Positions 5,746 to 24,674 of a stretch of 64,000 bases of DNA are shown piece by piece. Position 1 is the stretch's first letter. Every line of letters starts with the position of its first letter. Source of the stretch: Planctomycetota bacterium. Its GTDB lineage: Bacteria > Planctomycetota > UBA8108 > UBA1146. Position numbers and translations under genes: made by a program. The stretch spans positions 386 to 64,385 of the forward strand of contig JAPKAM010000001.1 of assembly GCA_028825265.1 (NCBI GenBank), given 5' to 3'. The notes beneath the pieces are model-generated. The model saw nothing but the letters and a program-made list of their open reading frames with translations, was not told the DNA's origin and did no database searches.

Positions 5746-8100
5746 ATGAACCCGACGACGGAAGGGTGTGTCATAATGGCCCGCAATTCGAAGGTCTCCA
5801 CAAGCGAGACCCTGATCTTTACCTCCTGGATGGCCCCATTGGCCCTTCTGGTACTGTTCATCACCCTCAGCATCGTACTTCCAACTGCCATGCTGGCTCA
5901 GGATCCTCCCGATCCCGTCTCCGAAGAAGAGACGAGCGAGGAAACGGCCCGCGAAGGAGCCGCCACTGCTGCCGGAGCGAACGATTCGGATGTCTCCAAC
6001 CCGGCCATGTACCGAATGGAAGAAGGCAAGTTCCCCGTTCTGAGCCTGATGCGCTTCATCCAGCGCACCTCTGGCAAGTTCGTGAACTATCCCTCCGCTG
6101 GCAAAGATCCTGCATTTGCAGAGGAAACATTTGTCGATGTGGTGGGCGATGTCGATCCGCTGACCTATCCCATCGTCCAGGCGATTCTCGAGACCAACGG
6201 TTACGAGTTGTGGGAAAGCACACTCGATGACGGCACCGTGGTGATCAACGTCCGAGCAACCACCGCACGGACCCAGCCGCCCTCTGATCCGGTCAGCCCC
6301 ATCATCGAGGCGGGTTCCGATCAGGTCTCCGAGTCCGGCGATGAACTAGCAACGCTGGTCCTGCAACTGAAGCATGTCGAGACTGCAGTGGTTCGTCAGG
6401 CTCTCCAAGAGTTGCTCGGAATCCAGGGTGCCGGAAGTCAGAGTGGCAGTCTCAAGATTGTGACCGTGACCAATAACGAAACCCTCATCATCAAGGCCAA
6501 GATGCGCGTTCTCGATCACATCCAACGACTGGTCGAATACATCGATGTCGAGGTCCGTGGTCCCGAAGAGTTGCTCGTCATTCGCGAACTTTTTTACGCC
6601 GATGCCCAAGATATCGTGAGCATTGTCCAGGAAGCACTGAGTGACACATCATCCGCTGGATCCACGGGTCGTAGGACCTCAACTCCAACCTCCCAGGCAG
6701 GACGTGGCGGCAGCACCGCCAACCGGGGTTCAGTCGGTCGCGGAACTGGGCAAGTGGGAGAATCGACCCGCTTGATCGCTGACAATCGCACCCAAAAGAT
6801 TCTGATCCAGTCCTCGGACCCGGCAGAACTCGATCTGGTTCACCAGTTGATCGACGAACTCGACACCAAGGTGAGAAACATCCGCAACACAACCTGGATC
6901 TACAAGGTCAACTACCTCAAGGCAGAGGAACTGGCGGATAACATCCGGCAATTGGTCGAAGGATCGGAAGGATCCCTGCGCCGTGGATCCTCCAGCCGTG
7001 GCGGCACGAGCCGAACCTCCGGCCGAGGAACCACTGGTGGAGCCGGCGGAGTGCAGCAACAACAACAGTTCACTCCAACGCGGATCGTGCCCCACGAACA
7101 AACCAACTCGTTGATCATCCAGGCCGAGCCGGAAGAGTACGAACAGATCGAGGCCATCCTGAAACAGATCGACAAGCGTCGTCGTCAGGTATTCCTCGAG
7201 GTCGCCCTGGTGCAGGTGAAGGACAGTTCCAGTCTCAACTACACCCTCGAATTCCTCGCCGGAAACCTCGATGACCAGGCACTGACCGGCATCCTCTTGA
7301 GCTCCTTCGGTGCCAGTGAGGTCATCCCCAATGTCGATCCCAATGGCGTGATCACTGGAGTCAACAGAATCCCCGGCATCGGCGGGGCAGGACTCAACGC
7401 AATACTCCAGCAGGACGGTCAGTTCCCGTTGATCATGAGTGCCTTGAAGTCCGATGAGGATTCCAACATCCTCGCCACGCCGTTCATCCTGGCGGACGAC
7501 AATCAGGAGAACTCGATCTCGGTTCAAAACGAGATCTTCTACACCAGTTCTAACACCACCAACGTCAACACCACCACTTCTCAGCAATCAGAAAGTGCCG
7601 GAATCACTCTGTCACTGATCCCCACCATTTCCAGTGAGGTCGTACTGCTGGAGCTAGAGTTGGAAGTGTCTTCCTTCTCAGGGGTCTCCAACTCAACCGG
7701 CGCCCTCCCCGATCGATCGACGAATATCATCAGTTCAAAGGTGACGATTCCAGACGGCGGAATGTTCATCATCGGTGGATTGGCTCAAATGGCCGAATCG
7801 GAGGTCAAGAGCAAGGTACCCCTGCTGGGAGATCTTCCCTTCATCGGCACCCTGTTCCAGTCGAGTGGCTCTAACTCTACACGTGACAACCTGTACGTGT
7901 TCCTGAGTGCACACATCCTCGATGATGATCACTTCAATAATCTCGGCGACTTCACCAAGGACGCGATCCACGGGGTCCGTTCCTTCCAGGATGATCTGAG
8001 ACTTCAGCAGTTCACCGATCCAAATAACAAACGCGACCAGCAACTCGCTCCCTTGATCCGGCCAGGACTGACAGCCACCGAGGCGGAGAAAACACCATGA
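5746..8100 (+). CDS. gspD: Type II secretion system secretin GspD (N0-N3 domains plus secretin domain)
   Basis: Signal-like N-terminus. Repeated secretin-N modules (e.g. TWIYKVNYLKAEELADNIRQL). Canonical secretin motif VPLLGDLPFIGTLFQ and ...NLYVFLSAHIL. Confidence 0.9.
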   Translation: MNPTTEGCVIMARNSKVSTSETLIFTSWMAPLALLVLFITLSIVLPTAMLAQDPPDPVSEEETSEETAREGAATAAGANDSDVSNPAMYRMEEGKFPVLSLMRFIQRTSGKFVNYPSAGKDPAFAEETFVDVVGDVDPLTYPIVQAILETNGYELWESTLDDGTVVINVRATTARTQPPSDPVSPIIEAGSDQVSESGDELATLVLQLKHVETAVVRQALQELLGIQGAGSQSGSLKIVTVTNNETLIIKAKMRVLDHIQRLVEYIDVEVRGPEELLVIRELFYADAQDIVSIVQEALSDTSSAGSTGRRTSTPTSQAGRGGSTANRGSVGRGTGQVGESTRLIADNRTQKILIQSSDPAELDLVHQLIDELDTKVRNIRNTTWIYKVNYLKAEELADNIRQLVEGSEGSLRRGSSSRGGTSRTSGRGTTGGAGGVQQQQQFTPTRIVPHEQTNSLIIQAEPEEYEQIEAILKQIDKRRRQVFLEVALVQVKDSSSLNYTLEFLAGNLDDQALTGILLSSFGASEVIPNVDPNGVITGVNRIPGIGGAGLNAILQQDGQFPLIMSALKSDEDSNILATPFILADDNQENSISVQNEIFYTSSNTTNVNTTTSQQSESAGITLSLIPTISSEVVLLELELEVSSFSGVSNSTGALPDRSTNIISSKVTIPDGGMFIIGGLAQMAESEVKSKVPLLGDLPFIGTLFQSSGSNSTRDNLYVFLSAHILDDDHFNNLGDFTKDAIHGVRSFQDDLRLQQFTDPNNKRDQQLAPLIRPGLTATEAEKTP

Positions 8101-9800
8101 GACTCTCCCTCTTCAGCGACCTGATCGAAGAAGGACTCCTCAGCGAGGATCAATTGAACGAGTGCCAGCAGGAGGAACGCTCCACCGGCAAGGCACTCGA
8201 CAAGATCCTGCGTGAGAAGGGCTATGTCACCGAGGTGGCTCTGCTGGAGGCGCTGTCGAAGAGGCTACGCATCCCGTACCTCGCTGATCTCAGCGATTGC
8301 ACTGTACCTACAGAATTCACCCACATGGTGCCGCCACAGTTTGCGCGCACCTACAACCTGGTCGCCGTCAGCGAGACCCCGGGAGTGATTCATATCGCCA
8401 CCTGTGATCCGCTCGATGTCCAACCGATGGATGACCTCGCTGCAATGGTCGGAAGAGTCATCGAGCCGGTGATCTCCCCTCGCGCGGAAATCATCGCATT
8501 GATCAACCGAGCGTTCCAAAAATCGAGTGCAGATGTGGACGAACTTCTCGAGGGTCTCGACGAAGACGACCTGATCGGAATCGCCGCAGAAATCGACGAG
8601 ACTGAAGACGTACTCGATATCGCCAACAAGGCTCCGATCATCAAACTGATGAACACGATCATGTTCGAGGCGCAAAAGAACCGAGCATCCGACATTCACC
8701 TGCAGCCTTTTTCCGATCGGCTCCAGGTCAGGTATCGCATCGATGGAATTCTTTACGACACCAAGGTTATTCCCAAGAAGATCCAGGACGCACTCGTTTC
8801 CAGGGTCAAGGTGATGGGAAAGATGGATATCGCAGAGCGAAGGCTCCCTCAGGATGGTCGAACCTCACTCAGGGTCGGAGACGGCGAACTGGACGTGAGG
8901 ATTTCCTCGGTGCCAACCAGTTACGGCGAGAGAATCGTGTTCCGCCTTCTCGACAAGACGGCACGCCTCTACGAACTTGAAGAGATCGGACTCGATCGAG
9001 AGAACTACCTGATACTCGAAAAACTGATCAACTCTTCCCACGGAATCTTGCTGGTCACAGGACCAACCGGTTCTGGAAAGACCACGACCCTCTATGCCGG
9101 CCTGGCCGAGATGGACTCGCAAGAACTGAACATCATCACCATCGAAGATCCCATCGAATACAACCTCGATACCATCAGCCAGATTCAGGTTTCGACCAAG
9201 AAGGGTCTCACCTTCGCCTCCGGACTTCGATCGCTGATGCGTCAGGATCCGGATGTGATGATGGTGGGAGAGATTCGAGACGAGGAAACAGCCGGAATCG
9301 CTGTACAGGCATCGAATACCGGACACCTAGTCTTCTCTACCCTACACACCAATGATTCCGCCGGTGCGGTGACTCGAATGATCGATCTCGGAGTCGAACC
9401 TTATCTGGTTTCATCTTCGCTGATTGGCGTGGTTGCCCAGCGACTGGTGAGAGTGATCTGTCAACGTTGCAAGGAATCCTATGAGCCAGAAGCTAGCGAG
9501 CTCGCGAATCTTGGGCTAACCCGAGATGAACTGCTCGAAGGCATGCTCTATCGCGGTCGAGGCTGTGAAAATTGCCTGGGTAGAGGCTACTACGACCGGA
9601 CCGCCATCTACGAGATCCTGACCATCAATGAAACCATTCGAGATCAGATCATCGCACGCACCAGTGCCTCGGTGATCAAGCAGGTCGCCGTCGAATCCGG
9701 TCACCTGAAAACCTTACGTATGGACGGAGCCAAGAAAGTGGCTCTGGGAATCACCACGACCGATGAAGTTTTTCGAGTCACCCAGATGGATGTCTTCTAG
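8097..9800 (+). CDS. gspE: Type II secretion ATPase GspE (GspE_N domain plus secretion NTPase)
   Basis: Walker A GPTGSGKTTTLYA. Asp/His boxes; TGHLVFSTLHTNDSAGAVTRMIDLGVEPYLV. Tetracysteine motif CQRC...CENC. ATGA overlap with gspD. Confidence 0.92.
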   Translation: MRLSLFSDLIEEGLLSEDQLNECQQEERSTGKALDKILREKGYVTEVALLEALSKRLRIPYLADLSDCTVPTEFTHMVPPQFARTYNLVAVSETPGVIHIATCDPLDVQPMDDLAAMVGRVIEPVISPRAEIIALINRAFQKSSADVDELLEGLDEDDLIGIAAEIDETEDVLDIANKAPIIKLMNTIMFEAQKNRASDIHLQPFSDRLQVRYRIDGILYDTKVIPKKIQDALVSRVKVMGKMDIAERRLPQDGRTSLRVGDGELDVRISSVPTSYGERIVFRLLDKTARLYELEEIGLDRENYLILEKLINSSHGILLVTGPTGSGKTTTLYAGLAEMDSQELNIITIEDPIEYNLDTISQIQVSTKKGLTFASGLRSLMRQDPDVMMVGEIRDEETAGIAVQASNTGHLVFSTLHTNDSAGAVTRMIDLGVEPYLVSSSLIGVVAQRLVRVICQRCKESYEPEASELANLGLTRDELLEGMLYRGRGCENCLGRGYYDRTAIYEILTINETIRDQIIARTSASVIKQVAVESGHLKTLRMDGAKKVALGITTTDEVFRVTQMDVF

Positions 9801-9819: not shown

Positions 9820-11034
9820 ATGCCAATCTACTCCTACCAGGCCGTCGATAGCCGTGGTCGCAACAAGAAGGGTACCATCGATGCCGATACGGCACGCGAT
9901 GGCCGCGACAAGTTGCGTCATCAGAAACTCCGCGTCACGAAGATGCAGAGGATCGATGCCATCGCTCGTGGAGGTGGGACTGCCGGCCGCTTCCAATTGC
10001 AGCGCAAGGCCAATATTCGTGACCTGGCCATCCTGACGCGACAGTTTTCCACTCTTCTCGCTTCCGGAGTTCACCTCTCGGAAGCGTTGACAGTTCTGGT
10101 GGAGCAGATCGAGGATCGAAGGATGGAAGTAATCTTTCGCGACATTCGCGAGAAGATCACTTCGGGAACGGGACTGGCGGATGCATTTTCACTGCACCCT
10201 GCATACTTCAGTGATCTCTACATCAACATGGTCCGGGCCGGTGAGGCGAGCGGGAACCTCGATGAGGTGCTATTGAGTCTCGCGAACTACCTGCAAAAAC
10301 AAGCATCCATCCGTGGGAAGATCTCCGCAGCACTGACCTACCCAGCGATCATGGTGATGGTCGGAATCATGGTCGTGTCCTTCTTGATGACCTTCGTTGT
10401 GCCAAAGATCACCGAGATGCTGCTCAAGAAGGGCAATGTCTTGCCCCGCCCCACCGAGATCCTGATCTTCATCAGTGACATGTTCAAGGCGTACTGGTTG
10501 CCGGGAATGATCTTCGCCCTGATTGCGATGGTCTTCTTCAGGGCCTTGATCGCTACCGAGAAGGGGCGGTTGATGTACGACACCTTCCTGCTGAAAATCC
10601 CGGTCATCGGATCCCTCTTGCAACGATCCGCCATCTCTAGATTTACAGTAACCCTGTCCATTCTGCTCAAGAGTGGACTGCCGGCCCTCGACGCCCTGAA
10701 CATCGTTGGAAAGGTCGTCAACAACGCACTGATGGCCAAGACCCTCGCTCAGGTTGCAGACCGAATCGTTGAAGGTGCTGACATCTCCACGCCACTCAAG
10801 AAATCCAAGATGTTTCCGCCCATGGTAGGCTACATGATCGCCGTTGGAGAGCAGAGTGGAGAACTCGAAAGCGTACTCGATCGGATCTCAGAGGCTTACG
10901 AGGAAGAGATCGATCTCTCCATACAGCGTCTGACAGCCATGGTCGAGCCGGTCATCATCGTACTACTCGCGGTGGCCGTTGGATTCATCGTCATGGCCGT
11001 ACTGTTACCACTATTGCAGTTCAACAACCTGTAA
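9820..11034 (+). CDS. gspF: Type II secretion inner-membrane platform protein GspF
   Basis: Two GspF/PilC-type repeats with three TM segments. Typical segments EALTVLVEQIED..., GEASGNLDEVL, and C-terminal VEPVIIVLLAVAVGFIVMAVLLPLLQF. Confidence 0.9.
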   Translation: MPIYSYQAVDSRGRNKKGTIDADTARDGRDKLRHQKLRVTKMQRIDAIARGGGTAGRFQLQRKANIRDLAILTRQFSTLLASGVHLSEALTVLVEQIEDRRMEVIFRDIREKITSGTGLADAFSLHPAYFSDLYINMVRAGEASGNLDEVLLSLANYLQKQASIRGKISAALTYPAIMVMVGIMVVSFLMTFVVPKITEMLLKKGNVLPRPTEILIFISDMFKAYWLPGMIFALIAMVFFRALIATEKGRLMYDTFLLKIPVIGSLLQRSAISRFTVTLSILLKSGLPALDALNIVGKVVNNALMAKTLAQVADRIVEGADISTPLKKSKMFPPMVGYMIAVGEQSGELESVLDRISEAYEEEIDLSIQRLTAMVEPVIIVLLAVAVGFIVMAVLLPLLQFNNL

Positions 11035-11081: not shown

Positions 11082-11501
11082 ATGAACCGTCGAGAGCACA
11101 AACCGACAGCGGGATTTTCGCTGATCGAATTGATTGTCGTTATCACGATTCTAGGAATCCTTGCCAGCACCGTGGTAGTGAGCGTGTTCGGCCGATCGGA
11201 CCAGGCGAGAGTCGCCGCCGTTCGCGCAGACTTCAGCAGCATCATGACCGCTTCACGATTGTTCAGGGAAGACCACAAGCGTTGGCCTGACAACATCGAG
11301 GAATTGCTTTCTCCGCCAGCCACTCAAAACGGTTCCAATATCGATTACCTCTCTTCAGAGCCTCTCGATCCATGGACCCTCGAGTACTACTACTACGAGT
11401 TGGGTGATCGGGGTCCGCTTCTCATCTCCTTCGGAGCCGATGGCATCGAAGGTGGTGATGAGTACAACACCGATATCTACTCCGATGAGAGTGGACGCTG
11501 A
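11082..11501 (+). CDS. gspG: Major pseudopilin GspG
   Basis: Prepilin signal ...TAGFSLIELIVVITILGIL (G|F cleavage site, Glu+5). GspG hallmark ...DPWTLEYYYYELGDRGP...SFGADG. Confidence 0.9.
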   Translation: MNRREHKPTAGFSLIELIVVITILGILASTVVVSVFGRSDQARVAAVRADFSSIMTASRLFREDHKRWPDNIEELLSPPATQNGSNIDYLSSEPLDPWTLEYYYYELGDRGPLLISFGADGIEGGDEYNTDIYSDESGR

Positions 11502-11505
11502 GCTC

Positions 11506-12036
11506 ATGACTCGGCAAGCCACGACTGCAGGTTTCACCATGATCGAGTTGATCGTCGTCGTGACGATCCTCGGCCTGCTTGCATCGGTTGTGGCCCCGAG
11601 GCTTGACGGACTTTCACCCAAGTACCGCCTCCGATCCGGAGCCCGTACTGTCGGCCAGAATATCAGCTGGGCGCGAAGTCTCGGCGGCGGTGTCGGTGAA
11701 GAATACGTGATCCAGTACGATCTGGCCCAAAATTCCTTCACCATCGTCTTGCCTCCACAAGAAGATGAAGACCCCGAACTCGAGATCGACATGCGTCAGA
11801 CGATGGGAATTCTAACGCTTCCTGATGGGATCGAGATCAGCAAGATCATGCACCCCGATGGTGGATCCGATGCGTACGGAATTGTCGACATCACTCTCGA
11901 TGAGTACGGCACAACTGGATCTCACATCGTGATTCTGACCAATGAAAATAACCAATCGATTGCGGTCCACTTCGAGGCGATCATCGGCAGTATCCAGTAC
12001 AAGCCCGGCGACGAGGCGGAGTTCCCTCGATGGTAA
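11506..12036 (+). CDS. Minor pseudopilin (GspH-like by position)
   Basis: MTRQATTAGFTMIELIVVVTILGLLAS prepilin N-terminus. I place the start at ATG 11506; the track ORF 11404 would overlap gspG. Confidence 0.7.
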   Translation: MTRQATTAGFTMIELIVVVTILGLLASVVAPRLDGLSPKYRLRSGARTVGQNISWARSLGGGVGEEYVIQYDLAQNSFTIVLPPQEDEDPELEIDMRQTMGILTLPDGIEISKIMHPDGGSDAYGIVDITLDEYGTTGSHIVILTNENNQSIAVHFEAIIGSIQYKPGDEAEFPRW

Positions 12037-12503
12037 ATCATGACTCCAGGATGCTGAGCGCTCGGGATGGATTCACTCTCATCGAACTGGTGATGGCGTT
12101 GGCCATCATCGGCGGATCCTTCCTCACCCTGCTATACATGCGAACCGATGCCGTGGATCGAGCCTTCAACTACAATCATCAACGGTTGGTCGAACGTGTT
12201 GCGAGAGAATTACTGGATGAGGCGGCTTTTGGCATCTCGGAAGGGTTGGACGGAACGGCACAACTTCCTGGCAGCGACAGTTCTTCAACTGGCTGGCCCT
12301 GGTCCGCCATTGTGACGGATCTCTCCACCGAAGAGACCGGCCCACGACTGCTCGAGATCACCTTAACCCTCGAGTATCCGGGGCCCGATCTGATCAGTTC
12401 GGAAGAGTACGTCTTGACGACTCGAGTCTTAGTCGATGCCGATGATCCACTCGCCACCAATGCCCAGACTCTGAACTCTTATGATAATGGAGCGGGATTC
12501 TGA
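12030..12503 (+). CDS. Minor pseudopilin (GspI-like by position)
   Basis: ...SARDGFTLIELVMALAIIGGSFL prepilin N-terminus. Small size (157 aa). Confidence 0.65.
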   Translation: MVNHDSRMLSARDGFTLIELVMALAIIGGSFLTLLYMRTDAVDRAFNYNHQRLVERVARELLDEAAFGISEGLDGTAQLPGSDSSSTGWPWSAIVTDLSTEETGPRLLEITLTLEYPGPDLISSEEYVLTTRVLVDADDPLATNAQTLNSYDNGAGF

Positions 12504-13420
12504 TGTCACAAAAAGGATTCACCCTCATCGAACTGATCGTGGTACTGGGGATGTTCACCATCGTGATGTCGATGTGCTACACGATCCTCGACACCACCCT
12601 TGAGGCGGATCGAAGAATCCAGAAGGCCACTCTCACCGGCAAGGTTGGAGAGGCGATTCTCGGCCAGATGAGACGCGATCTTCAGGGCGTCGCCTGGCGT
12701 GGTCTCGGAACAGATGTTTTCCGTGGTGAAGATCGTGGCCAGGATGAGAATGCCGAGGACTCGATCGATTTCATCACCACTTCACCGGTGGCTGAGCCCT
12801 CAGAGGACACCCCCAACTGGACCGGAGAACTCAGTTCCATCGGCTACGCACTGCGACCAGGAAAAGATGGAGACAGCGTGCTGTTTCGCAGGATCTCGTG
12901 GGATCTGACCGAGGATTCTTTCGATTCCGGCGAGCGAAGTGCCATCTACGACCGAGTGATGGCTCTCAACTTCGAGTTCCTCGGAGAGGAGGGCGAGTGG
13001 CTCCAGGAGTGGGACGCCTCGACCTTGCTGCCGGACCAGAATCTGACCGACTTCCCCTACCTCGATGAGAGGGCGGCCATCGCAGCGATGGAAGCGGAGG
13101 AAGCGAGTGGGTCAGGCGGCGCGACCGGCGCATCGGGCACGGAGACCGGCACGGCGCCAGGATCGGTCCTGCAGCCGGGTGATATCGACCCCGCAACTGG
13201 CGAGGAGATCGTCGAGGAGCCGCTCCCACGACCTCTCCCCAGGGCTGTCCGCATCGTTCTTTACCTGCACTACAGCAATGAACAGGGACAGATCCTCAAC
13301 AACGATGGAACCCCGTTTGAGGAAGTTTTTTCGACCATCATCCCCTTGCTCTCTGCGGAGCAGATCCTGGTCGAGGATCCTGCATCCTTGCTGCTCGAGG
13401 GGAGCAACAGCAGCTTCTGA
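12503..13420 (+). CDS. Minor pseudopilin (GspJ-like by position) with acidic low-complexity C-terminal region
   Basis: MSQKGFTLIELIVVLGMFTIV prepilin N-terminus. Follows the GspI-like gene with a 1-nt overlap. Confidence 0.65.
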   Translation: MSQKGFTLIELIVVLGMFTIVMSMCYTILDTTLEADRRIQKATLTGKVGEAILGQMRRDLQGVAWRGLGTDVFRGEDRGQDENAEDSIDFITTSPVAEPSEDTPNWTGELSSIGYALRPGKDGDSVLFRRISWDLTEDSFDSGERSAIYDRVMALNFEFLGEEGEWLQEWDASTLLPDQNLTDFPYLDERAAIAAMEAEEASGSGGATGASGTETGTAPGSVLQPGDIDPATGEEIVEEPLPRPLPRAVRIVLYLHYSNEQGQILNNDGTPFEEVFSTIIPLLSAEQILVEDPASLLLEGSNSSF

Positions 13421-13451
13421 CAACACGACCCCACCGAATGCATCAATGGAG

Positions 13452-13530
13452 GGGCCTCCGGAAGGATATGGCAAGAACTCGGATTGCGTGATCCCCAGGT
13501 TCGAGCCCCGGAGGCCCTACTTTTCTTCTC
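13452..13530 (+). terminator. Candidate complex terminator or structured RNA downstream of the gspD-J operon
   Basis: 10-bp perfect inverted repeat GGGCCTCCGG (13452-13461) / CCGGAGGCCC (13508-13517) encloses ~46 nt. It is followed by TACTTTTCTTCTCC (U-rich). Confidence 0.35.
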
Positions 13531-13653
13531 CAGATGCTCCTAGACGTACCTACAGCGGTAGAAGAGTATTTGACAGAGGGCCCTGCAACTGTGCCAAAAT
13601 CGCACATGCCCCCTCCCTAGGGCCCCATTCAAGCCTCTCCAGAGGCCCCTTTT

Positions 13654-13670
13654 TGGCACTGATGATGCTC
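13654..13670 (+). promoter_or_regulatory. Candidate sigma-54 promoter (TGGCAC-N5-ATGCT)
   Basis: TGGCACTGATGATGCTC. Perfect -24 hexamer TGGCAC at 13654-13659. GC at 13667-13668 is 10 nt after the GG. It is oriented toward the Kelch lipoprotein gene, ~450-530 nt away. Confidence 0.3.
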
Positions 13671-13730
13671 TCTATCAACTGGAGAGGGTCTTGCCGAGAG
13701 ATCGATTTGGAAATCGACTTTAGACAGCCT

Positions 13731-13870
13731 TCATCGACCTAGCAGCCATCGACCTAGCAGCCATCGACCTGGCGGCGACGGTGGACAGGGTTGCGCCGGA
13801 GAACTACAATCCGCCACTTGAGGAGAAGGTACTCCTGGAACTGAAGATACTCCTGGAACTAACGAGGAAC
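13731..13870. repeat. Short tandem repeats in an intergenic region
   Basis: AGCAGCCATCGACCT occurs in ~2.5 copies at 13735-13775. TACTCCTGGAACT x2 and GAACTAACG x2 occur at 13822-13870. Confidence 0.7.
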
Positions 13871-14116
13871 TAACGGGCCTAGGGCATCGAGCCTCGGGCG
13901 CGGTTACGGGAAATCGTGTATCGCTGGTCTGATTCGTGGTCTGCGGGGTTCCTGCCCCGACCGTTACCCGTGAAATCGCGGGCGGTCTGCAGGACAGGAC
14001 CAGATCAGATTTTACATTCTCGTCGATGAGCATCGGCAAACGATGGCGTCAAACTGAGCCCCACTTCGTATTGAGTTTGGCGACCGTCGGTCGCCACTTG
14101 GAAAGAGCAGAAACGC

Positions 14117-17256: not shown

Positions 17257-19401
17257 ATGATCTGGCAACTTTGGAAGCCACCATCATCTCCATCTCCGAT
17301 CGGACTGCTGCTGCCCCCGCTGCTTCTCCTGCTGCTGCTCGGTGTCATCGGCTGTCAACCGACCTCTCATCCGGCACTGATCTCGGCACGGATCGACGGC
17401 CTTCTCGAAGACGGGCTGGGTGAAGGAGATCAGATCATCCTGGTCCTCGATGCTGCGCTGGAACTGACTGCAAGCCCCCGCGTCGGTCTGATGATCGAGG
17501 GCGCCACGGGCTCGGAACAGTACTCGTTTCACAGTACAGAGGACCACAATGTACTCATCGTCGAACTCGAATCGGGGTTTGACCATCTCGACCTGATCAA
17601 TTCCGATCGCTCCGTGCTGGTCTCCCTGGACCTTGGCTTGCTGGGTCTCAAGGACGACCTTGGACAACCCCTCGAAGGTGTGGTGGGACCGGCGATTCTG
17701 CAACTCCCTGTGGCAGAACCGGCGATTCTTGAGGATGCCCGCTGGATCGATTCCGATCGCAGCTCCACCGTCAATCGGGAAGACTTGCTAGTGCTTCGCT
17801 GGAATCAACCGGTCCACTTCTCGCAGACCCTACGAGATCGCAAACTCCAGATCTCACCCAGTCTGATTCGACTTTCGGTAAAAGGGGATCAGCTGGGATC
17901 TAGCAGGATTCCTGCTCGTTTCCTCGATGGTCCTTCCTCCAGAGAAACCAGCATCCTGCTGGGAGAACTTCCCTTTCTCACGATCGATGGGATGCACGAG
18001 CACAGTCGATCGAGATTTGAAGGCTCCCCCAGTGCCATCGCCGTGACGGGCACCACCATCTTACCCTCGCTGGATCTGGTCACCGATCAGGGAGGAGGGG
18101 TGGCTTCGCCGGTAGTGGTGGATCTGGAGGGAGAATGTGCACCCTGGCAAGACCTCGAATTACCTCCGGGGTTACCGGCGCTTGCGGGGCACTCTCTGAC
18201 TCGATTGCCAGGCGGCAAGGTACTGATCGCTGGTGGCCGAGCGCTGATGGCAGGATCCTCCGGAAGGGCGCTGGCCAGCGCCTGGATCATCGATCCACTA
18301 GGAAATCACCAGGGGCCCATCTCGATGCAAGCGGCGCGTGCCGACCACTGCGCGACTTTGCTCCCCGGAGTCGACGGGTTGCTGGAAACCAATGACGATC
18401 TGGTTCTGATCACCGGCGGCTGGGATGGATCTCGGGCTCGTGATGACGCCGAAGTACTGCTTTTTTCCGCTGAAAATAGCCACTTCATTCCGGTCGAAAC
18501 CAGTGCCCCTTCCAGTGCAAGATTCGATCACTCGGCCCATCCGATTGCTCAGTTGAACACCGTGATCCTGGTGGCTGGTCGCCTCGATGGAACTTTGAAC
18601 GGACTCATCGAACAGGTCGAGATTGAAATCCTCGACAGTGACACTGGACCGAAGGCGATCAGCACGACCTACCAGATCGGTGAGTTGCGCTATCCAAGGC
18701 ACCAGCATGGTTCGATTCTGTTCGAAGATTCCGAACAACCGCTGCTGCTACTCTATGGTGGCTACGGTGGATCCCTCGGTACTCCACACGTCCAGTTTGA
18801 TACGGAGCACTGCCGGGTCCTCGACAATCCTGAAGCATTTCGGATCCGTGCCGACTCCAGGACCACTCGTGCCCTCCTGATCGATGAGCCCGAGTTAAAC
18901 TTGCCGGGACCTCGTCGCGGCTTGCGGCTCCATTCGATTGGAGATAGTTCCTCCCAGGGAAACCGGGCCTTGCTGATCGCGGGAACACGCAGAGAACCCA
19001 ATCCGGATGCGTTGACCCCATTTCAACCGACCGAATGCAGGACCAGTTATCTTCTCGAGCAACAGGATACGAAATTCGGTCGCATCCGGTTGCGTTGGAT
19101 TCCAGCGGGCAGACTTCCGGTCGAACTCTACCAGCCCAGCATCGTGGGACTTCCTGGTGGCAGGATCCTGATCGCTGGTGGCTATGACCGCGGTGGACTT
19201 CCAACATCGGAAGCGGCGATCTACGACCCCTTCTCGGGAGTTGTGGAGCGGGTGTGCAAACCTCTCAGCAGAGAATCCGCCCAGGGCGAAGAATTGCTGC
19301 TAGCACCGCAGTCCGTCGCATTGTGGGGGGGAGCACTGATTATAGCCGCTTCGCCGGAAAGCCGCACCAGTCGGGCATTGCTGTTCAAGTCAGGAAACTG
19401 A
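17257..19401 (+). CDS. Kelch-repeat beta-propeller lipoprotein, paralog of the 14189 gene
   Basis: Start M at 17257 (MIWQLWKPP...LLLLLLLGVIGCQ, lipobox). Kelch-like repeats: LTRLPGGKVLIAGG, HCATLLPG..VLITGGWDG, RHQHGSILFEDSEQPLLLLYGGYGG, LPGGRILIAGGYD. Confidence 0.75.
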   Translation: MIWQLWKPPSSPSPIGLLLPPLLLLLLLGVIGCQPTSHPALISARIDGLLEDGLGEGDQIILVLDAALELTASPRVGLMIEGATGSEQYSFHSTEDHNVLIVELESGFDHLDLINSDRSVLVSLDLGLLGLKDDLGQPLEGVVGPAILQLPVAEPAILEDARWIDSDRSSTVNREDLLVLRWNQPVHFSQTLRDRKLQISPSLIRLSVKGDQLGSSRIPARFLDGPSSRETSILLGELPFLTIDGMHEHSRSRFEGSPSAIAVTGTTILPSLDLVTDQGGGVASPVVVDLEGECAPWQDLELPPGLPALAGHSLTRLPGGKVLIAGGRALMAGSSGRALASAWIIDPLGNHQGPISMQAARADHCATLLPGVDGLLETNDDLVLITGGWDGSRARDDAEVLLFSAENSHFIPVETSAPSSARFDHSAHPIAQLNTVILVAGRLDGTLNGLIEQVEIEILDSDTGPKAISTTYQIGELRYPRHQHGSILFEDSEQPLLLLYGGYGGSLGTPHVQFDTEHCRVLDNPEAFRIRADSRTTRALLIDEPELNLPGPRRGLRLHSIGDSSSQGNRALLIAGTRREPNPDALTPFQPTECRTSYLLEQQDTKFGRIRLRWIPAGRLPVELYQPSIVGLPGGRILIAGGYDRGGLPTSEAAIYDPFSGVVERVCKPLSRESAQGEELLLAPQSVALWGGALIIAASPESRTSRALLFKSGN

Positions 19402-19432
19402 TCGGCATCAATTTCAGCGACCGTTCCTCAAC

Positions 19433-19570
19433 CACACCGTTCCTCAATCGCACAGTTCCTCAATCGCACAGTTCCTCAACCACACCGTTCCTCAATCGCA
19501 CAGTTCCTCAATCGCACAGTTCCTCAACCACACAGTGCCTCAATCGCAGCGCTCCAACTCAGCACTGATC
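19433..19570. repeat. Tandem array of ~9 copies of a 16-bp unit GTTCCTCAAYCRCACA (higher-order 48-bp period)
   Basis: Directly visible: CGTTCCTCAACCACAC / CGTTCCTCAATCGCACA / GTTCCTCAATCGCACA repeated. It lies between convergent gene ends (Kelch-2 stop 19401, GspM-like stop 19572). Confidence 0.85.
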
Positions 19571-19571: not shown

Positions 19572-20120
19572 CTATCGCGCGGCCGTCTCACCGCTGTAAT
19601 TCACAAGCACCAGGTAGAGTTCCCATGACTCCGCCTCGGTCTCATTCTTGGCCCTGTTGGTGAGTTTCACCTTTTCGAATCCGAGGTGAGGTGCCCGCGA
19701 CTGAATATGAGCCAAAAATGTGATCTGTTCACGTAAGGGTCTATTTTCAAAGGTCGCCGCATAACTGTGCTTGGTGATGCCAGCGGTGACATCCGCATCA
19801 TTGCTTTGACTCTTGATCTCTGGCTTCGAAGAACTATTTTTCATCGATTCGATGATCTCGGCGATGGTGGTACTGATCTTGCCAGAGTTTTTCTTGCTCT
19901 CCTCGCGACGTAAATGCTCAAGAACCACCTCTTTACTCTCAGCGCTATTGAGCAAATCCTTCAGGTTCATCAGATTCTGGCTCTCTCTTACGGTAGCAGC
20001 ACGGTACTTTTCAGCACTGGTGTGAAGCCAGTACCCCCAGCCACCGAATACCGCTGAGCAAAGAAACAGGGTCAGGAGTATGATCTGCGTCAGATCACTG
20101 GTTTTTCCACGGTCTGTCAT
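19572..20120 (-). CDS. GspM/PilO-like bitopic membrane protein (putative T2SS GspM)
   Basis: 182 aa. N-terminal TM LTQIILLTLFLCSAVFGGWGYWL, then coiled-coil and periplasmic domain. Positioned immediately downstream of the GspL-like gene. Confidence 0.5.
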   Translation of the reverse strand: MTDRGKTSDLTQIILLTLFLCSAVFGGWGYWLHTSAEKYRAATVRESQNLMNLKDLLNSAESKEVVLEHLRREESKKNSGKISTTIAEIIESMKNSSSKPEIKSQSNDADVTAGITKHSYAATFENRPLREQITFLAHIQSRAPHLGFEKVKLTNRAKNETEAESWELYLVLVNYSGETAAR

Positions 20121-20122: not shown

Positions 20123-21865
20123 TTAGTTCCTCCCGCCAGTTCCAGTGATCGATTCCTTCAACTTCAACTTCAGGGTGACCTTTTTTCGATCTCCCGCAGG
20201 CTTGATGTCATCTTCGATGTTGAAGTATTTGGACTTCTGCTCCAGAGCCGTGATCACTCGCTCTCCGGCAGCGGCATCGGGAACCTCGAAGATCACGGTG
20301 GAGGTTCCGCCTCGTTTCTTGGCGCTATTGATCTCGATCGATTTCCAGGTCGGATAGACCTTGGGATTCGCTGCGGAGATCCCACCGGTCACATCCTTGA
20401 TCAGGTCCATTCCTGGTAAGTACTGCACAAGCCTTGCACGCTTATTGGCTCCCGTCCCGCCCTTCAATTCTGCGATCTTCAGTTCTGCACTTCGGACAAA
20501 TACAGGAGAAGAGCCCTTTGGAGCCTCTCCAAATCTAGCCATGAAGACGTCGCGTTCGTTGGCTCTCACCGTTTCAAACTCTGCTCGGCGGAGTTGCTTA
20601 CCTCGATGGCTATCGATCAACCAAGTCACGGACATGAAGCACAGGATCAAGCCCATCAACATCAGCCCCGGGAGCAACTTTGAAAATCTGCGCTCATACC
20701 GGTGCTCTTCTTTGCGTAAATCAAATCGAACTAATCCTTGCCCTGCAGACTGAAGCGCGAGTCCTACAGCCACACCTCCCGATAGGTTACAGCGATCGAC
20801 GAGATCCAGGGGCAATCCCGTTTCGATGCCGTCACAGACACGTAACTGCTGTGCGGGCACTTCATATTCCTCTGCCAAGCGATCTGCAATCCCCAGTTCA
20901 CAAGCGGCACCTCCGGCAACAACAATTCGATCGAGAGGCGATCTCATCAGGATTCCTGCAAAGGTCCGCTCGATCTCGGTGAATAATCGACCGATCACCT
21001 CATCGGGATCCGCTGGAGGAAGGGTTGGAGACGATGAGAGTTCCGCATTCAACCGCTCGAACTCTTCATCCGAAACCACCGCAATTGCGAGTTCATCTTC
21101 GGCGGCAGTTTCAGCAGCGACTCCTCCGCCTTGCATCAGATCTGCAAACTCCATCGCAGTCTCTGACTGGGCGCTGTCGGAACCACTAGCAGTCGCTCCG
21201 GCACTCCCGGTCGATGCAGTCGTCAGCGTCGGAATCGCGGAACGTTGGAGATGATTCGAGGTCGATCGAATCTTCGTGACCCTTCCTTCCTCTAGTAGGA
21301 CGAAGGTCGTATGGCCCGCTTCCATACCGATCAGAAGGGTCCTTCCGCCTCGCAGATCTGGCCTGGCTACATGAAGGGAAGTCGCCAGGGCCGTGGCATC
21401 GATCTCGATCTGGACCGGATCCACCCCACCTTCGCGAAGCATCTCCAGATGAGCTCCGACCAGTTGTTTCTGCACCGCACTGATCAGGAGCCGGCTCGAA
21501 TCTTCAGTTTCCGAACACTTGATGTATTCGATGACCAGATCATCGATGGAAGCCGAAGGAAGGTGCCCCTCGCTCTCGTACCGGATCGTCTTGGAAATGA
21601 CATCGTCATTTGTGAATGGAACCGATATCTCCCTCAAGGTAGACATACGGGTTGGGATGGAACTGACGACATCGATCGTCTTGCTTCCGTGACTATCTAG
21701 TGCACTACGAAGGATCGCTCGCAGAGACACGAGGCGCTCCTCGCTATTGTCTCCGACAATCTTTCCCTCGATGTAGTCGATGATGACGGTCTGTTTCGAA
21801 GTGGCTTCCACCACTGCGATCGAGACGTCAGGACCATCGATCTCTATTCCTGCGTGCAGGGCCAC
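20123..21865 (-). CDS. GspL-like protein (PilM-like cytoplasmic actin-fold domain + TM + PilN-like periplasmic domain)
   Basis: N-terminus MALHAGIEIDGPDVSIAVVE... (PilM/GspL cytoplasmic domain style). Internal TM LLPGLMLMGLILCFMSVTWLI. Gene order is gspK, (C-like), L-like, M-like. Confidence 0.6.
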   Translation of the reverse strand: MALHAGIEIDGPDVSIAVVEATSKQTVIIDYIEGKIVGDNSEERLVSLRAILRSALDSHGSKTIDVVSSIPTRMSTLREISVPFTNDDVISKTIRYESEGHLPSASIDDLVIEYIKCSETEDSSRLLISAVQKQLVGAHLEMLREGGVDPVQIEIDATALATSLHVARPDLRGGRTLLIGMEAGHTTFVLLEEGRVTKIRSTSNHLQRSAIPTLTTASTGSAGATASGSDSAQSETAMEFADLMQGGGVAAETAAEDELAIAVVSDEEFERLNAELSSSPTLPPADPDEVIGRLFTEIERTFAGILMRSPLDRIVVAGGAACELGIADRLAEEYEVPAQQLRVCDGIETGLPLDLVDRCNLSGGVAVGLALQSAGQGLVRFDLRKEEHRYERRFSKLLPGLMLMGLILCFMSVTWLIDSHRGKQLRRAEFETVRANERDVFMARFGEAPKGSSPVFVRSAELKIAELKGGTGANKRARLVQYLPGMDLIKDVTGGISAANPKVYPTWKSIEINSAKKRGGTSTVIFEVPDAAAGERVITALEQKSKYFNIEDDIKPAGDRKKVTLKLKLKESITGTGGRN

Positions 21866-21907: not shown

Positions 21908-23071
21908 CTAATTTGGCTGATTTTGTTGACGGGCTCTCTGAAGTTCCTTGAGACGACGAATCGCTTCCTGAGGGTTGGACTCGACATCCACGCCGAGTGC
22001 CCCTTCCAAGGTCGTCTGCCTCACTGTTGGTTTGGGAGTCTTGGTGGATGTTCCGCCACGAAGTTTTGGCTTGACCGGATTCGGAGGGACTTGCGCTCCC
22101 CTCCTTTGGGACCTGGGATCACCTACATTTCGATTGTTACTTCTGGGATTCACCGCAGCCTTGTTGGTGGGAGACCTGGTCGCAGCGCCTCGGGGTGGAG
22201 TACCTCCGGAGGGAGGCTTGGATGCAGCGGTTCCCCGCATCTCTTTGCCGTCATTACCACGAATCCAGCCTCTCTCATCTCCGGGGATCGCTCCCACCCG
22301 ACCGGCAGCACTGACTCCGGCCCCGGAACCCGAGAGGAGTTCCATTTCCTCCGGGCTGAAGCCCCGGAGCACCAGCGTCTGGCCTTCTTCATGGATCACC
22401 GGATCGGTGATCGATTCCTGCCGAAGGGTGTAACTGCGACCGTTGTGCTCGTAAATCACCTGCTTGGGTTGGTCCTGAATTTCGACCACCATGTAGCGGT
22501 TCTCATCAATTCGAAACTCTTTCCCCTGTTCCAGGTATCGCACCCGTTGGTTCGAGACCTGGCTGCGATTCGTTCTGGAGTTGTTCAGCCGACTGGTCGG
22601 GGAAGCTCCACCACCTCTGGGGGCCCGACCACGAACACGGGTAGTTGTGGTGGCACGCCCGTTACGGCTATTCGATTTGAGGACGTTGGTTTGCCCCTTC
22701 TCCTGGATGGATGCGAATCGCTGTCCCTCAGCAGAAAAGATGACTCCAACGATCTCCCATTCTCCGATGGGGCCAGTATCGAGTGACGGAAGCGTCGACT
22801 CGACTGGTTTGACCACAGCCACAGGAGCCTGTGGTGCAGAGCGGTAAAGTTCGCCAATGATATCCCGATACTGGTTTGGAACCGGGCGAGCCGCCTGCTC
22901 CTTCAATTCAAAATCTTGCGGATTGACCAGGCGTACCTTGACCCCCTGTGGAGATTCGAGCAGCAGATCGAACAATACGAATCCGAGCAGGGTCATCGCT
23001 GAAATGTTGAAGAGCAGAATTCCGCCCCGAAGTAATTGGATGCTTACTTTTGGCATCGTCTGATCCTCCAC
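21908..23071 (-). CDS. Bitopic membrane protein with Arg/Pro/Gly-rich C-terminus; possible GspC/PilP-like T2SS component
   Basis: N-terminal TM ILLFNISAMTLLGFVLFDLLL. Lies between gspK and the gspL-like gene. I do not recognise a PDZ domain; this is a context-based call. Confidence 0.4.
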   Translation of the reverse strand: MEDQTMPKVSIQLLRGGILLFNISAMTLLGFVLFDLLLESPQGVKVRLVNPQDFELKEQAARPVPNQYRDIIGELYRSAPQAPVAVVKPVESTLPSLDTGPIGEWEIVGVIFSAEGQRFASIQEKGQTNVLKSNSRNGRATTTTRVRGRAPRGGGASPTSRLNNSRTNRSQVSNQRVRYLEQGKEFRIDENRYMVVEIQDQPKQVIYEHNGRSYTLRQESITDPVIHEEGQTLVLRGFSPEEMELLSGSGAGVSAAGRVGAIPGDERGWIRGNDGKEMRGTAASKPPSGGTPPRGAATRSPTNKAAVNPRSNNRNVGDPRSQRRGAQVPPNPVKPKLRGGTSTKTPKPTVRQTTLEGALGVDVESNPQEAIRRLKELQRARQQNQPN

Positions 23072-23078: not shown

Positions 23079-24674
23079 TCATCGTCGTACTTCCTTCCAG
23101 GAAATCACAACAACATGCTGGCCTTTCCTAGCGCACACCATTCTACCCGAGAGAGAGCGATCCTCGCTCGTACCTTCGATGGTAGTGGTGAAAAAACTGC
23201 TAGAAAAGACAATATGATCCTCAAGGTCTTGCTGCAGAAGTGCGAATACTGACTCGTCTGAGCCACTGTCGTCTTGCCAAGTCTCATCGACCTGCTTTAG
23301 TTGCTCGAATCGGGAGAAATACTCGAATTGCTGCACTTCCTCCTCATCCACACCGAATTCGCTGAGGAGATCCTCGAGGATTTCCCCAGTCACGTCATCG
23401 ATCTCCTGCTGGTAACTATTGCAATGATCTCGAATCTGCCAGGCGATTTCCTTGGCCTCATCGAAGTCCTCGAAAGATCGAAGCATGGCCATCAGCACCT
23501 CAGGCCTGGCGGTATTGAGGTTGATCTTGCCCGATGAGTTTGCGGTCATGACATGTCGAAGACCGATGGGAGTCGGAATTTGATCCACTCCGCCATCGAG
23601 TAACTCGAACCCGGATGACTCCAGATCGTCGAATGATCCGGGAATCAGCGACTGTAAATCTTCCATCATTCCGGGGGAATCTTCCTGGTCGTATTGGTCC
23701 TCTTCTTCCAGCGTCGCCGGATCGATGGGGCCGTAGAACAGTTCCCAGGTGACTTCTTCCAGCTGACGGATCGTATCGAGACTGCGAATTCTACGCAGAT
23801 TTTCATCGAGAACCCGCTGGTGAACCATCGAGACGATCGCCTCTGCTGTGCCCCCTGGATCAGGAGTGTCGATGTAATCGAATCCATTTTCAGTGTTGAA
23901 ATCGATGACCGCCTCGATCAACCGCTCGAGAATCACTTGGGCCTCGTCCACTTCTTCTTGCTCGGGAGGCACGAACTCTTCTAGCAGCCCCGCTTCCTGC
24001 AGTAGCCCATCAATTGCAGCGTTGCCAGCGGCCGCTTCTTCGAGGGCATCGAGATCGCTGTCCTCTTCCTCGGGCAAGGCCGCGAGCGAGAAGATGTGAT
24101 TGAGATCGATACAGGATTCTCCGTCGACCACCACTCCAACGACCTGGACGCCATTGATGGTTTCCTGGATCGGATGAGCCCAGTTATCATGGTGGGTATC
24201 CACCGGGTCATCGTCAGATGGGTTTTCACCCGTACCACCCTGGCCTCCTCCTCCACCCGATCCGGGGAGAGTGAGTCCTCCGGGAAGTTGGGTTCCGACC
24301 CCTTCCCCTGCGGTATCCATTCCAGCCAGAGCATCCTCCTCGAGATCATCCTCGAGGTAACCAAGATCTTCCATCAGGTCGGTGGAGAGTTTCAGCAGCA
24401 CCTGGCGCCCCGAGGCCTGCAAGGCATAGGAAAGAGCCGTTCTTCCCTGCCGATTGCGCGAGATCCGTTCCTCGATTTTTGTGACGAAGATCAACTGGGT
24501 GATGACGACCGTCAGGACCAGCACCAGGATCAGCACCACGAACAACGCAATCCCCCCCTCGGGGGATCGTGTCGCATTCTCGCTGGCTCGCGGCGGCTGA
24601 ATCATCAGATCTCCGGTCATCGGTTCAATTTCAAACGGGTCCAATTCAAACGAGTCGACGAAGAGTTCCCTCAT
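23079..24674 (-). CDS. gspK: Minor pseudopilin GspK (long form with acidic insertion)
   Basis: Prepilin-like N-terminus without Glu+5 (GGIALFVVLILVLVLTVVITQLIFV). GspK hallmark INLNTARPEVLMAMLRSF (helix-hairpin-helix). 531 aa with a long D/E-rich insertion. Confidence 0.7.
   Translation of the reverse strand: MRELFVDSFELDPFEIEPMTGDLMIQPPRASENATRSPEGGIALFVVLILVLVLTVVITQLIFVTKIEERISRNRQGRTALSYALQASGRQVLLKLSTDLMEDLGYLEDDLEEDALAGMDTAGEGVGTQLPGGLTLPGSGGGGGQGGTGENPSDDDPVDTHHDNWAHPIQETINGVQVVGVVVDGESCIDLNHIFSLAALPEEEDSDLDALEEAAAGNAAIDGLLQEAGLLEEFVPPEQEEVDEAQVILERLIEAVIDFNTENGFDYIDTPDPGGTAEAIVSMVHQRVLDENLRRIRSLDTIRQLEEVTWELFYGPIDPATLEEEDQYDQEDSPGMMEDLQSLIPGSFDDLESSGFELLDGGVDQIPTPIGLRHVMTANSSGKINLNTARPEVLMAMLRSFEDFDEAKEIAWQIRDHCNSYQQEIDDVTGEILEDLLSEFGVDEEEVQQFEYFSRFEQLKQVDETWQDDSGSDESVFALLQQDLEDHIVFSSSFFTTTIEGTSEDRSLSGRMVCARKGQHVVVISWKEVRR

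Follow-up and report, generated by a model that had tools for sequence, protein, structure and literature searches.

A Conserved Kelch-HEAT-Kelch Module Embedded in a Type II Secretion-Type Locus of Planctomycetota

The DNA analyzed is a stretch of 64,000 nucleotides (nt) from an uncultured marine Planctomycetota bacterium (contig JAPKAM010000001.1 of the GenBank assembly GCA_028825265.1), which is called the window below. Its positions 5746-24674 hold the genes of a type II secretion system (T2SS)-type machine in two convergent blocks, gspD to gspJ on the + strand and the genes resembling gspM, gspL, gspC and gspK on the - strand. Between them lies an island of three genes, encoding a Kelch beta-propeller lipoprotein (Kelch1), a HEAT-repeat membrane protein and a second Kelch lipoprotein (Kelch2). 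An earlier, sequence-only reading had proposed this arrangement, and family matches together with the translations found all of these genes in place (table 1). Comparison with related genomes shows the Kelch1-HEAT-Kelch2 unit to be an envelope module of this system that is obligatory and inherited along with it, and the locus that carries it is a Planctomycetota-specific variant of the type II secretion/type IV filament machine. The functional locus begins upstream, at about position 1004, and three genes that had been missed, namely those of a kinase, an activator with an FHA domain and a protein of secretin N-domains (SecN), belong to the system.

The + strand block follows the Gsp order. 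The secretin is best matched in NCBIfam by TIGR02517 (GspD) with 274 bits, under the equivalog cut-off of 351, and the PilQ model reaches 145 bits. On the GspE and GspF genes, the PilB and PilC models score under their own cut-offs. The GspG-type protein carries the Pfam T2SSG domain with 56.5 bits (cut-off 21) and falls just under the cut-off of TIGR01710 (85.9 against 88.85 bits). The minor pseudopilins stand in the order H-I-J with K apart, all with family matches under the cut-off, and the prepilin motifs AGFSLIEL, AGFTMIEL, DGFTLIEL and KGFTLIEL were found in the translations of this strand.

At the N-terminus of GspE (8097-8260), the cyclic di-GMP (c-di-GMP)-binding motif model NF053729 scored 39.5 bits (cut-off 38), and the translated MshEN-type domain there contains the motif RLSLFSDLIEEGLLSEDQL. 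Such an N-terminus suggests that the machine may be controlled by c-di-GMP.

The - strand block is more diverged. For the K-like gene, the KINLNTA motif stands as proposed earlier and the family matches are weak but consistent (NF037980 GspK, 3.7e-9; Pfam T2SSK, E 0.014; a PilX_N domain); the best sequence match in the PDB is XcpX/GspK 5vtm, with an E-value of 0.19 and spanning both motif regions. The L-like protein, identical (100%) to the NCBI protein OSB09_00080 from a metagenome-assembled genome (MAG), as Kelch2 is to OSB09_00070, has PilM 3jc8 as its best PDB profile match (2.5e-13), whereas Pfam T2SSL gives an E-value of 0.17 and the Amuc_1101 family a weak match. Judging from these matches, the gene is GspL-like in architecture, with a PilM-type actin-fold fused to a membrane part, and PilM-like in sequence. 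The C-like protein has, besides a transmembrane (TM) helix, two small domains that are conserved and long disordered stretches of basic character. It has no match in Pfam (E <= 10), NCBIfam or PDB, and no PDZ domain. For the M-like protein, which is kept beside the L-like gene in relatives, no family match (Pfam E <= 10) and no PDB sequence match was found. Both genes are present as proposed, and their GspC and GspM labels rest on position, size and a TM helix only.

The secretin, GspE/GspF and the major pseudopilin are thus recognizable T2SS components, while GspC and, within the window, GspO are not recognized. No Peptidase_A24 prepilin peptidase (GspO) is encoded in the 64-kb window, as had been noticed earlier, and it may lie elsewhere in the genome. 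The locus also has no PilT-type retraction ATPase and no recognizable GspN, pilotin or GspA/B. The description of a complete T2SS was therefore too strong, given the unverifiable C- and M-like genes, the PilM-like L and the absence of GspO and GspN. From the family matches, the locus would best be named a T2SS-type machine with a diverged platform.

Table 1. Features of the secretion locus and of its surroundings in the window.
Feature	Coordinates	Strand	Evidence and remarks
Ser/Thr protein kinase, first gene of its unit	1004-2797	+	Pfam Pkinase, E 3.8e-49
Sigma-54 enhancer-binding protein (activator)	2794-4665	+	Pfam Sigma54_activat (AAA+) 2.8e-72, FHA 2.1e-18, GAF, HTH_8
SecN, 257 amino acids (aa)	4662-5435	+	Only a signal peptide and two secretin N-domains; two stretches match Pfam Secretin_N (2.4e-15)
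Inverted repeat GTGTTC-N7-RAACAC	5458-5478	+	Candidate activator-binding site of the gspD promoter
Sigma-54-type -24/-12 element 5' of gspD	5581-5596	+	GGGCATTTCATTTGCG; predicted
Secretin, GspD-type	5746-8100	+	Pfam Secretin 5.6e-37 and three Secretin_N
GspE-type ATPase with MshEN N-terminal domain	8097-9800	+	TIGR02533, 635.1 bits, above the cut-off of 630.25
GspF platform protein	9820-11034	+	TIGR02120, 425.8 bits, above the cut-off of 424
Major pseudopilin, GspG-type	11082-11501	+	Pfam T2SSG 3.4e-15, N_methyl
Minor pseudopilin, GspH-like	11506-12036	+	N_methyl; TIGR01708 weak, 4.4e-6; start picked at M35 of the open reading frame (ORF)
Minor pseudopilin, GspI-like	12030-12503	+	N_methyl; TIGR01707 weak, 8.7e-4
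Minor pseudopilin, GspJ-like	12503-13420	+	N_methyl; TIGR01711 8.2e-10; Pfam T2SSJ 1.1e-3
Terminator-like structured element after gspJ	13448-13524	+	11-bp stem, conserved interior of ~50 nt, U tract
Inverted repeat 5' of the Kelch1 promoter	13590-13606	+	TGTGCCAAAATCGCACA, form TGTGYCA-N5-CGCACR
Sigma-54-type -24/-12 element 5' of Kelch1	13654-13669	+	TGGCACTGATGATGCT, one mismatch to consensus; predicted
Kelch1, lipoprotein, large Kelch beta-propeller	14189-16018 (alternative start 14117)	+	609 aa from M25
HEAT protein	15996-17141	+	Pfam HEAT_2 1.5e-16; TM anchor with the N-terminus inside, linker, HEAT solenoid
Kelch2, lipoprotein	17257-19401 (start 17257 preferred over 17068)	+	714 aa
Tandem repeat of 16 nt, 7.9 copies	19423-19548		GTTCCTCAATCGCACA; takes up the space between the convergent Kelch2 and GspM-like genes
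GspM/PilO-like gene	19572-20120	-	Position, size and N-terminal TM helix only
GspL-like fusion	20123-21865	-	PilM-type cytoplasmic domain, TM helix, periplasmic domain; Pfam PilM_2
GspC-like bitopic protein	21908-23071 (likely start M6 at 23056)	-	Position, size and N-terminal TM helix only
GspK-like minor pseudopilin	23079-24674 (start maybe 24605)	-	N-terminus GIALFVVL; KINLNTA motif GKINLNTARPEVL
Sigma-54-type -24/-12 element 5' of gspK	24701-24716	-	TGGCATGAGATCTGCC; predicted
Inverted repeat of 19 bp 5' of the gspK promoter	24848-24866	-	(G/A)TGTAGTGATT..AACAC, same form as the gspD repeat
RND efflux operon 5' of gspK, same direction	24862-32507	-	Membrane-fusion protein and two AcrB-type pumps
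Molybdopterin oxidoreductase, formate-dehydrogenase type, split	51398-54217	-	ORFs 53093-54217 and 51398-53044; a NuoF-like gene adjoins
Subtilase, 1654 aa	56119-61083	-	Five PKD domains
PA14 and cytochrome c protein	62602-63999	+	Runs off the end of the window

The three island proteins are all predicted to be membrane-tethered, lipobox and topology calls being made throughout by pattern reading of the sequences. A lipobox Cys ([LVAF]-x-[GA]-C after a hydrophobic stretch) is present in all Kelch1 and Kelch2 orthologues. In Kelch1, a conserved lipobox of the form GC-H/N/S-G-D/S and a short tether precede the propeller. Its AlphaFold2 model (pLDDT 84, pTM 0.85) is nearest in structure to galactose oxidase/GlxA and to Kelch domains. 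A radical copper oxidase of this kind (galactose oxidase/GlxA, AA5) was rejected, since such enzymes have a Cys-Tyr cofactor and a Cu site of two His and two Tyr, whereas across the Kelch1 family a single Tyr and not one Cys is invariant.

The HEAT protein begins with a basic N-terminus and one TM helix, followed by a Pro/Ser/Thr-rich linker of 60-80 aa and about 270 aa of HEAT repeats; the TM helix and the linker are kept in nine orthologues. By the positive-inside rule, its solenoid is predicted to be periplasmic. The start of the gene overlaps the stop codon of Kelch1, which suggests translational coupling. For Kelch2, whose lipobox is kept in nine orthologues, an AlphaFold2 model of moderate confidence (pLDDT 71) predicts two beta-sandwich domains at the N-terminus and, beyond a disordered linker, a Kelch propeller of six blades like those of Keap1 and KLHL12. 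Foldseek aligns this model to Kelch domains with a TM-score of about 0.65. The two Kelch proteins had been called paralogous. Their Kelch repeats are indeed similar (BLASTP E 3e-6), but the similarity is confined to them, and the architectures differ.

A beta-propeller gene directly after minor (pseudo)pilin genes recalls the type IV pilus, as pilY1 follows the minor pilins in fimU-pilVWXY1E. The machine could accordingly be a short, type IV pilus-like surface filament with the Kelch propellers as PilY1-like adhesin partners of its tip or base, and the PilM-like sequence of the L-like platform protein, the PilX_N domain of the K-like protein and the MshEN-type, c-di-GMP-binding N-terminus of the ATPase, as in MSHA pili, are in its favor. 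On the contrary, GspE and GspF exceed T2SS equivalog cut-offs where the PilB and PilC models fall short, the major subunit bears a T2SSG domain, and a retraction ATPase is missing from the locus. The Kelch proteins, moreover, are lipoproteins with a promoter of their own. Only Kelch families were found in them at Pfam E <= 0.01, with no match to a PilY1/PilC model, and no PilY1 structure is among the best 50-60 structural matches listed for them. A pilus of this type is therefore improbable.

Relatives of the locus were collected by three routes, namely as homologues of the L-like protein, with a GspJ-like profile and with a Kelch1 profile, and amount to about 60 related loci, designated below by L and a number. 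In detail, the first route gave nine metagenome contigs bearing L-like homologues at 81% to 31% identity, the second, a scan of one genome per species, 23 loci (23 species-level genomes), and the third, a scan of metagenomes, 44 loci; for the loci of the second and third routes, gene maps were made by tblastn. Two further loci were added by separate look-ups. The relatives are MAGs or metagenome contigs throughout, viewed within 10 kb on either side of each match. Where named, they are Planctomycetota, except for a single record with Bacillota in its title and two whose title says just "bacterium". The first of these, L014 (QNYK01000082.1, 'Bacillota bacterium MAG 7'), bears a planctomycete-type locus at 70-90% protein identity, and its contig is probably mis-binned or mislabelled.

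Conservation of the island inside the gsp loci of relatives, which the sequence-only reading had left to comparative genomics, holds in every locus with adequate flanks, with Kelch1-HEAT-Kelch2 always between gspJ and gspM. Every such contig shows the order (kinase-activator-SecN)-D-E-F-G-H-I-J, then Kelch1-HEAT-Kelch2 in the same direction, and then M-L-C-K in the opposite one. The order was read in the 23 species-level genomes, the nine contigs of the L route, the two other loci and about 30 of the 44 loci of the Kelch1 route. It persists where identity has dropped to 29-34% in Kelch1, about 36-44% in GspD and about 25% in L and K. The L-like homologue that is most distant (L010, 28% identity) sits in a block resembling K?-C?-L-M, without Kelch or HEAT genes and without adjacent gspD-J; this locus is the edge of the family and not a counter-example.

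Shared synteny is not peculiar to the island, and RND pump genes are likewise syntenic over much of the clade. The island might accordingly be functionally unrelated to secretion and merely inherited next to the gsp genes. However, the RND genes, which are syntenic in most relatives and only in the nearer ones, give way to other genes in the distant loci L009, L035 and L036, whereas the island between gspJ and gspM never moves. Its linkage is thus tighter than background synteny. In addition, genes of one machine stand on both sides of it and its promoter is of the type found in both gsp units, all of which makes mere co-inheritance very improbable.

Sigma-54-type promoters shared by the machine and the island had been claimed before, and conserved motifs were in fact found 5' of gspD, Kelch1 and gspK, with an activator gene adjacent. 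The candidates, GG-N10-GC elements of the TGGCAC-N5-TTGC type, came from relaxed pattern scans and from conservation in relatives, against a background of 0.08 motifs with scores >= 9 per kb per strand. The exact sigma-54 consensus occurs at a single site of the window, TGGCACTTCGGTTGCA at 36633-36648 (+), within the coding region of thiG, and is probably a chance match. The gspD promoter has the form GGGCAT-N5-TTTGC in 15 of the 16 loci spanning the region and a different sigma-54-like motif in the remaining one (L032); in nine of ten loci the inverted repeat lies 122-123 nt 5' of the -24 element. The Kelch1 motif is kept in most relatives, with the perfect consensus in several, and its inverted repeat was found in all ten loci (64-65 nt 5' of the -24 element in six, 86-88 in three and 110 in one). 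The gspK motif, as TGGCAT-N5-CTGCC or TGGCCC-N5-TTTGCC, is present in eight of eight loci and also in L036, L039, L050 and L077, with the inverted repeat in seven of the eight (146-152 nt in six, 125 in one). The deepest-branching loci, too, have similar motifs. Promoters and activator-binding sites remain predictions at the level of motifs.

The locus appears from these motifs to be a small sigma-54 regulon of three units, gspD-E-F-G-H-I-J, kelch1-heat-kelch2 and gspK with the C-, L- and M-like genes. Between the first two lies the structured element after gspJ, with stem arms GGGGCCTCCGG and CCGGAGGCCCC and the invariant TTGCGTGATCC in its interior. Its exact 11-mer stands just 3' of gspJ, in a single copy there, in 24 loci, and with one mismatch in L003, L021 and L023; L025 has one extra chance copy within the HEAT gene. 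Some stem changes are compensatory, and conservation is above that of the flanking coding DNA. A tRNA-like reading of the element was dropped, as no Rfam or tRNA match emerged from the Rfam gathering scan of the window, an E-value scan of 13380-14200 or ARAGORN. Transcription might end conditionally at this element, between the gspD-J and Kelch units. In the convergent gap after Kelch2, the tandem array is kept as a feature and not as a sequence, for instance in L001 (12284-12397), where the repeats are of unrelated units.

The upstream unit lies directly 5' of gspD, and its genes overlap at their stop and start codons. The 3' end of the kinase gene overlaps the start of the activator and lies directly 5' of it in the ten relatives with sufficient flank (L011, L012, L015-L019 and L021-L023), and the activator gene is kept 5' of gspD in relatives. 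SecN locally matches positions 160-263 of GspD and is, by its sequence, most readily taken as a periplasmic paralogue of the GspD N-domains. It stands directly 5' of gspD in all relatives with upstream sequence where tblastn still detects it, and may form an extra periplasmic ring or substitute for GspC. The adjacent activator is the presumable regulator of the three promoters, and the kinase/activator/SecN operon would then drive all three units, with phosphorylation by the kinase received by the FHA domain and relayed by the activator to the sigma-54 promoters.

Taken as a whole, the Kelch1-HEAT-Kelch2 unit is very likely a functional part of this secretion-type system. Its members differ in constraint. 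Among relatives with GspE at 80-90% identity to the window, the median identities (in %) are 84 for GspE, 81 for GspF and 75 for GspD, and in the island 73 for Kelch1, 55 for HEAT and 45 for Kelch2. The pseudopilins G, H, J and I have 65, 62, 60 and 57, and L, M, K and C have 57, 56, 49 and 43, respectively. In constraint, Kelch1 is thus about level with the secretin. Full-length Kelch2-type proteins make up about 48 of the best 150 representatives of 50%-identity clusters from a library of 1.8 billion proteins, which is an indication that the variant is widespread and old.

The main alternative takes the three proteins not as cargo but as new components of the machine, with a role in its structure or assembly. 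The two Kelch lipoproteins would then be scaffolds of the outer membrane, either pilotin-like or associated with the secretin, and the inner-membrane HEAT protein would reach across the periplasm to them (cf. GspA/B-GspS and PilF/Tgl). All three would serve to anchor the secretin, or to assemble it, within the unusual envelope of planctomycetes. The module is always there and its order is fixed, nearly every locus down to about 30% identity has it as a single copy, its promoter is of the same sigma-54 type as those of the machine genes, and the linkers or stalks of the three membrane-tethered proteins suit a span of the periplasm. Kelch2 and HEAT are without detected paralogues outside the locus. 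The roles of pilotin, GspN, GspA/B and a PDZ-bearing GspC, none of them recognizable in the locus, seem vacant, and SecN, another lineage-specific periplasmic part, demonstrates that this lineage has remodelled its machine. Against this, known pilotins have about 100-250 aa and Kelch1 and Kelch2 609 and 714, respectively, and the literature searched gave no Kelch or HEAT protein as a part of a T2SS or type IV pilus. Duplicates of Kelch1 and its stand-alone or domain-fused paralogues would also be unusual for a stoichiometric core part. A structural role is, on balance, rather unlikely. In a related form, Kelch1-HEAT-Kelch2 and SecN would make up a class of trans-envelope component not known so far, a beta-propeller/alpha-solenoid scaffold tethered to both membranes; this is unlikely, and so is the replacement by such a scaffold of pilotin, GspN and the GspC PDZ domain, for example in gating or anchoring the secretin or in handling lipidated substrates.

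The behavior of Kelch1 alone points in another direction. In L007 (18753-20462) and L008 (18624-20354), a tandem duplicate of Kelch1 brings the Kelch genes to three, with HEAT and Kelch2 in single copy. Paralogues of the Kelch1 family also occur away from gsp genes, in L034 (8320-10845), L054 (9755-11773, a lipoprotein of 672 aa), L055, L057 and L058; no paralogue of Kelch2 or HEAT was detected outside the locus. The Kelch1 paralogues P0065 and P0066 carry a Sec signal peptide and two He_PIG Ig-like domains, a combination typical of extracellular proteins, and one MAG holds both the locus of the He_PIG-fused paralogue (L034) and the canonical locus L033. Both proteins also bear a D-x-N-x-D-G motif that looked dockerin-like by eye; the dockerin-like N-terminus of P0065 was not confirmed by Pfam.

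Because only Kelch1 has been duplicated, with stand-alone and domain-fused paralogues as in effectors, the favored reading is a passenger-plus-adaptor model, in which one or both Kelch lipoproteins would be passengers and a membrane-tethered protein their adaptor. A probability of roughly 0.45 is given to it. Kelch1, and possibly Kelch2, would be made as a lipoprotein, handed to the pseudopilus and secretin, and displayed on the cell surface. The HEAT solenoid on its long linker, perhaps with the stalked propeller of Kelch2, would be the periplasmic adaptor or chaperone that holds the passenger, and would stand in for the missing functions of GspN and the GspC PDZ domain. The high conservation of Kelch1, at an enzyme-like or receptor-like level, suits a ligand-binding or catalytic passenger. 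After its lipobox Cys, the residues are rich in Gly, Ser and Asp (HGD, NGS, SGS, GGGS) and resemble the sorting motif of T2SS-dependent lipoproteins (PMC12802150). Lipoprotein cargo is encoded together with a dedicated T2SS in the cases of PulA, InvL (PMC12802150) and SslE (PMC5012682, PMC3707838), and membrane-bound T2SS chaperones are encoded beside their substrate (PMC4713064).

Several points weigh against the passenger-plus-adaptor model. Invariant presence, fixed order and a 1:1:1 stoichiometry over deep divergence are more typical of machine parts, and three proteins that are all membrane-tethered via linkers fit a trans-envelope scaffold as well. Many lipoproteins of any kind have a Gly/Ser-rich tether behind the lipobox, and the likeness to the sorting motif may mean less in Planctomycetota, whose own rules of lipoprotein sorting may differ. 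The modelled Kelch folds are generic and give no functional clue. The stand-alone paralogues of Kelch1 indicate a propeller that can work away from the locus, and are no sign of secretion. Both the regulatory model, built on motifs, and the display of a passenger, deduced from genes and sequences, are to be read as predictions.

Nearly all that is known of type II secretion comes from Proteobacteria, and the T2SS machinery of Planctomycetota is essentially uncharacterized. In the literature searched, nothing described T2SS loci in Planctomycetes or linked Kelch or HEAT proteins to T2SS, type IV pili or pseudopilins. The locus defines a widespread, lineage-specific variant, present in 23 species-level genomes and consisting of four invariant extra envelope proteins and a control circuit of kinase, FHA domain and sigma-54. 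If the Kelch lipoproteins are cargo, machine and passenger would form a tightly coupled pair, found in marine bacteria that are abundant, with a GspN-independent route of lipoprotein display. If the Kelch and HEAT proteins are parts, they would represent a new way to build the outer half of a T2SS.

Elsewhere in the window, the molybdopterin oxidoreductase is split, perhaps owing to a frameshift or to a selenocysteine codon in frame. The subtilase with PKD domains and the PA14-cytochrome c protein look exported by their domains and might be substrates of a secretion system.

Among the closest known systems are those with lipoprotein cargo, that is, the Pul system of Klebsiella with PulA, the T2SS-beta of Escherichia coli with SslE and the T2SS of Acinetobacter with InvL (PMC12802150, PMC5012682, PMC3707838). 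These share GspD/E/F/G and the minor pseudopilins with the present locus, as well as large lipobox proteins within or beside the secretion genes, co-regulated and rich in Gly, Ser and Asp after the lipidated Cys. With such cargo known for dedicated systems, an undescribed secretion-plus-cargo module, as first suggested, was overstated as a category (PMC12802150, PMC5012682, PMC3707838). The candidate passengers differ in being Kelch propellers without an enzyme signature instead of a pullulanase, mucinase or adhesin. GspN, which lipoprotein cargo needs in those systems, was not found in this locus, nor was a recognizable pilotin, a PDZ-bearing GspC or a locus-encoded prepilin peptidase. The association is kept here over far deeper divergence, and is known from genes alone.

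The HEAT protein recalls the dedicated chaperones LipB/Lif for LipA and CpaB for CpaA (PMC4713064), which are also bitopic inner-membrane proteins with a largely helical periplasmic domain, encoded beside the (here candidate) substrate and probably translationally coupled to it. It differs in showing no sequence relationship to Lif or CpaB, in its long and disordered linker and in its place between two candidate substrates, and a chaperone role would be deduced from these likenesses. With the pilotins GspS/AspS, with PilF/Tgl and with GspA/GspB, the module has in common a locus-encoded outer-membrane lipoprotein and a bitopic inner-membrane protein with a Pro-rich linker, and the alpha-solenoid fold of the HEAT protein is shared with PilF/Tgl, which are TPR lipoproteins. 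However, the folds are others (Kelch and HEAT), the proteins are far larger, the solenoid is anchored in the inner membrane and not lipidated, and there is no peptidoglycan-binding or AAA+ partner.

The minor-pilin/PilY1 and PilMNOP genes of type IVa pili resemble the locus in a propeller gene after the minor pilins and in a cytoplasmic domain closest to PilM (3jc8). On the contrary, the ATPase, platform and major subunit are of the Gsp type here, the PilM part is fused to a membrane/periplasmic part as in GspL, PilT is absent and the propellers are Kelch lipoproteins, not PilY1. Nor is the locus of the Akkermansia Amuc_1098-1102 type, to which there are only weak matches.

Sigma-54 control of type IV filament genes is established for pilA through PilS-PilR, and activators with FHA domains occur in Myxococcus. 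The present locus is similar in its -24/-12 promoters and its AAA+ activator, which is adjacent here, and the FHA input implies control by Ser/Thr phosphorylation. In contrast to PilS-PilR, such promoters are predicted here on all three T2SS-type units and not only on the pilin gene, and the predicted input is an adjacent Ser/Thr kinase in place of a histidine kinase.

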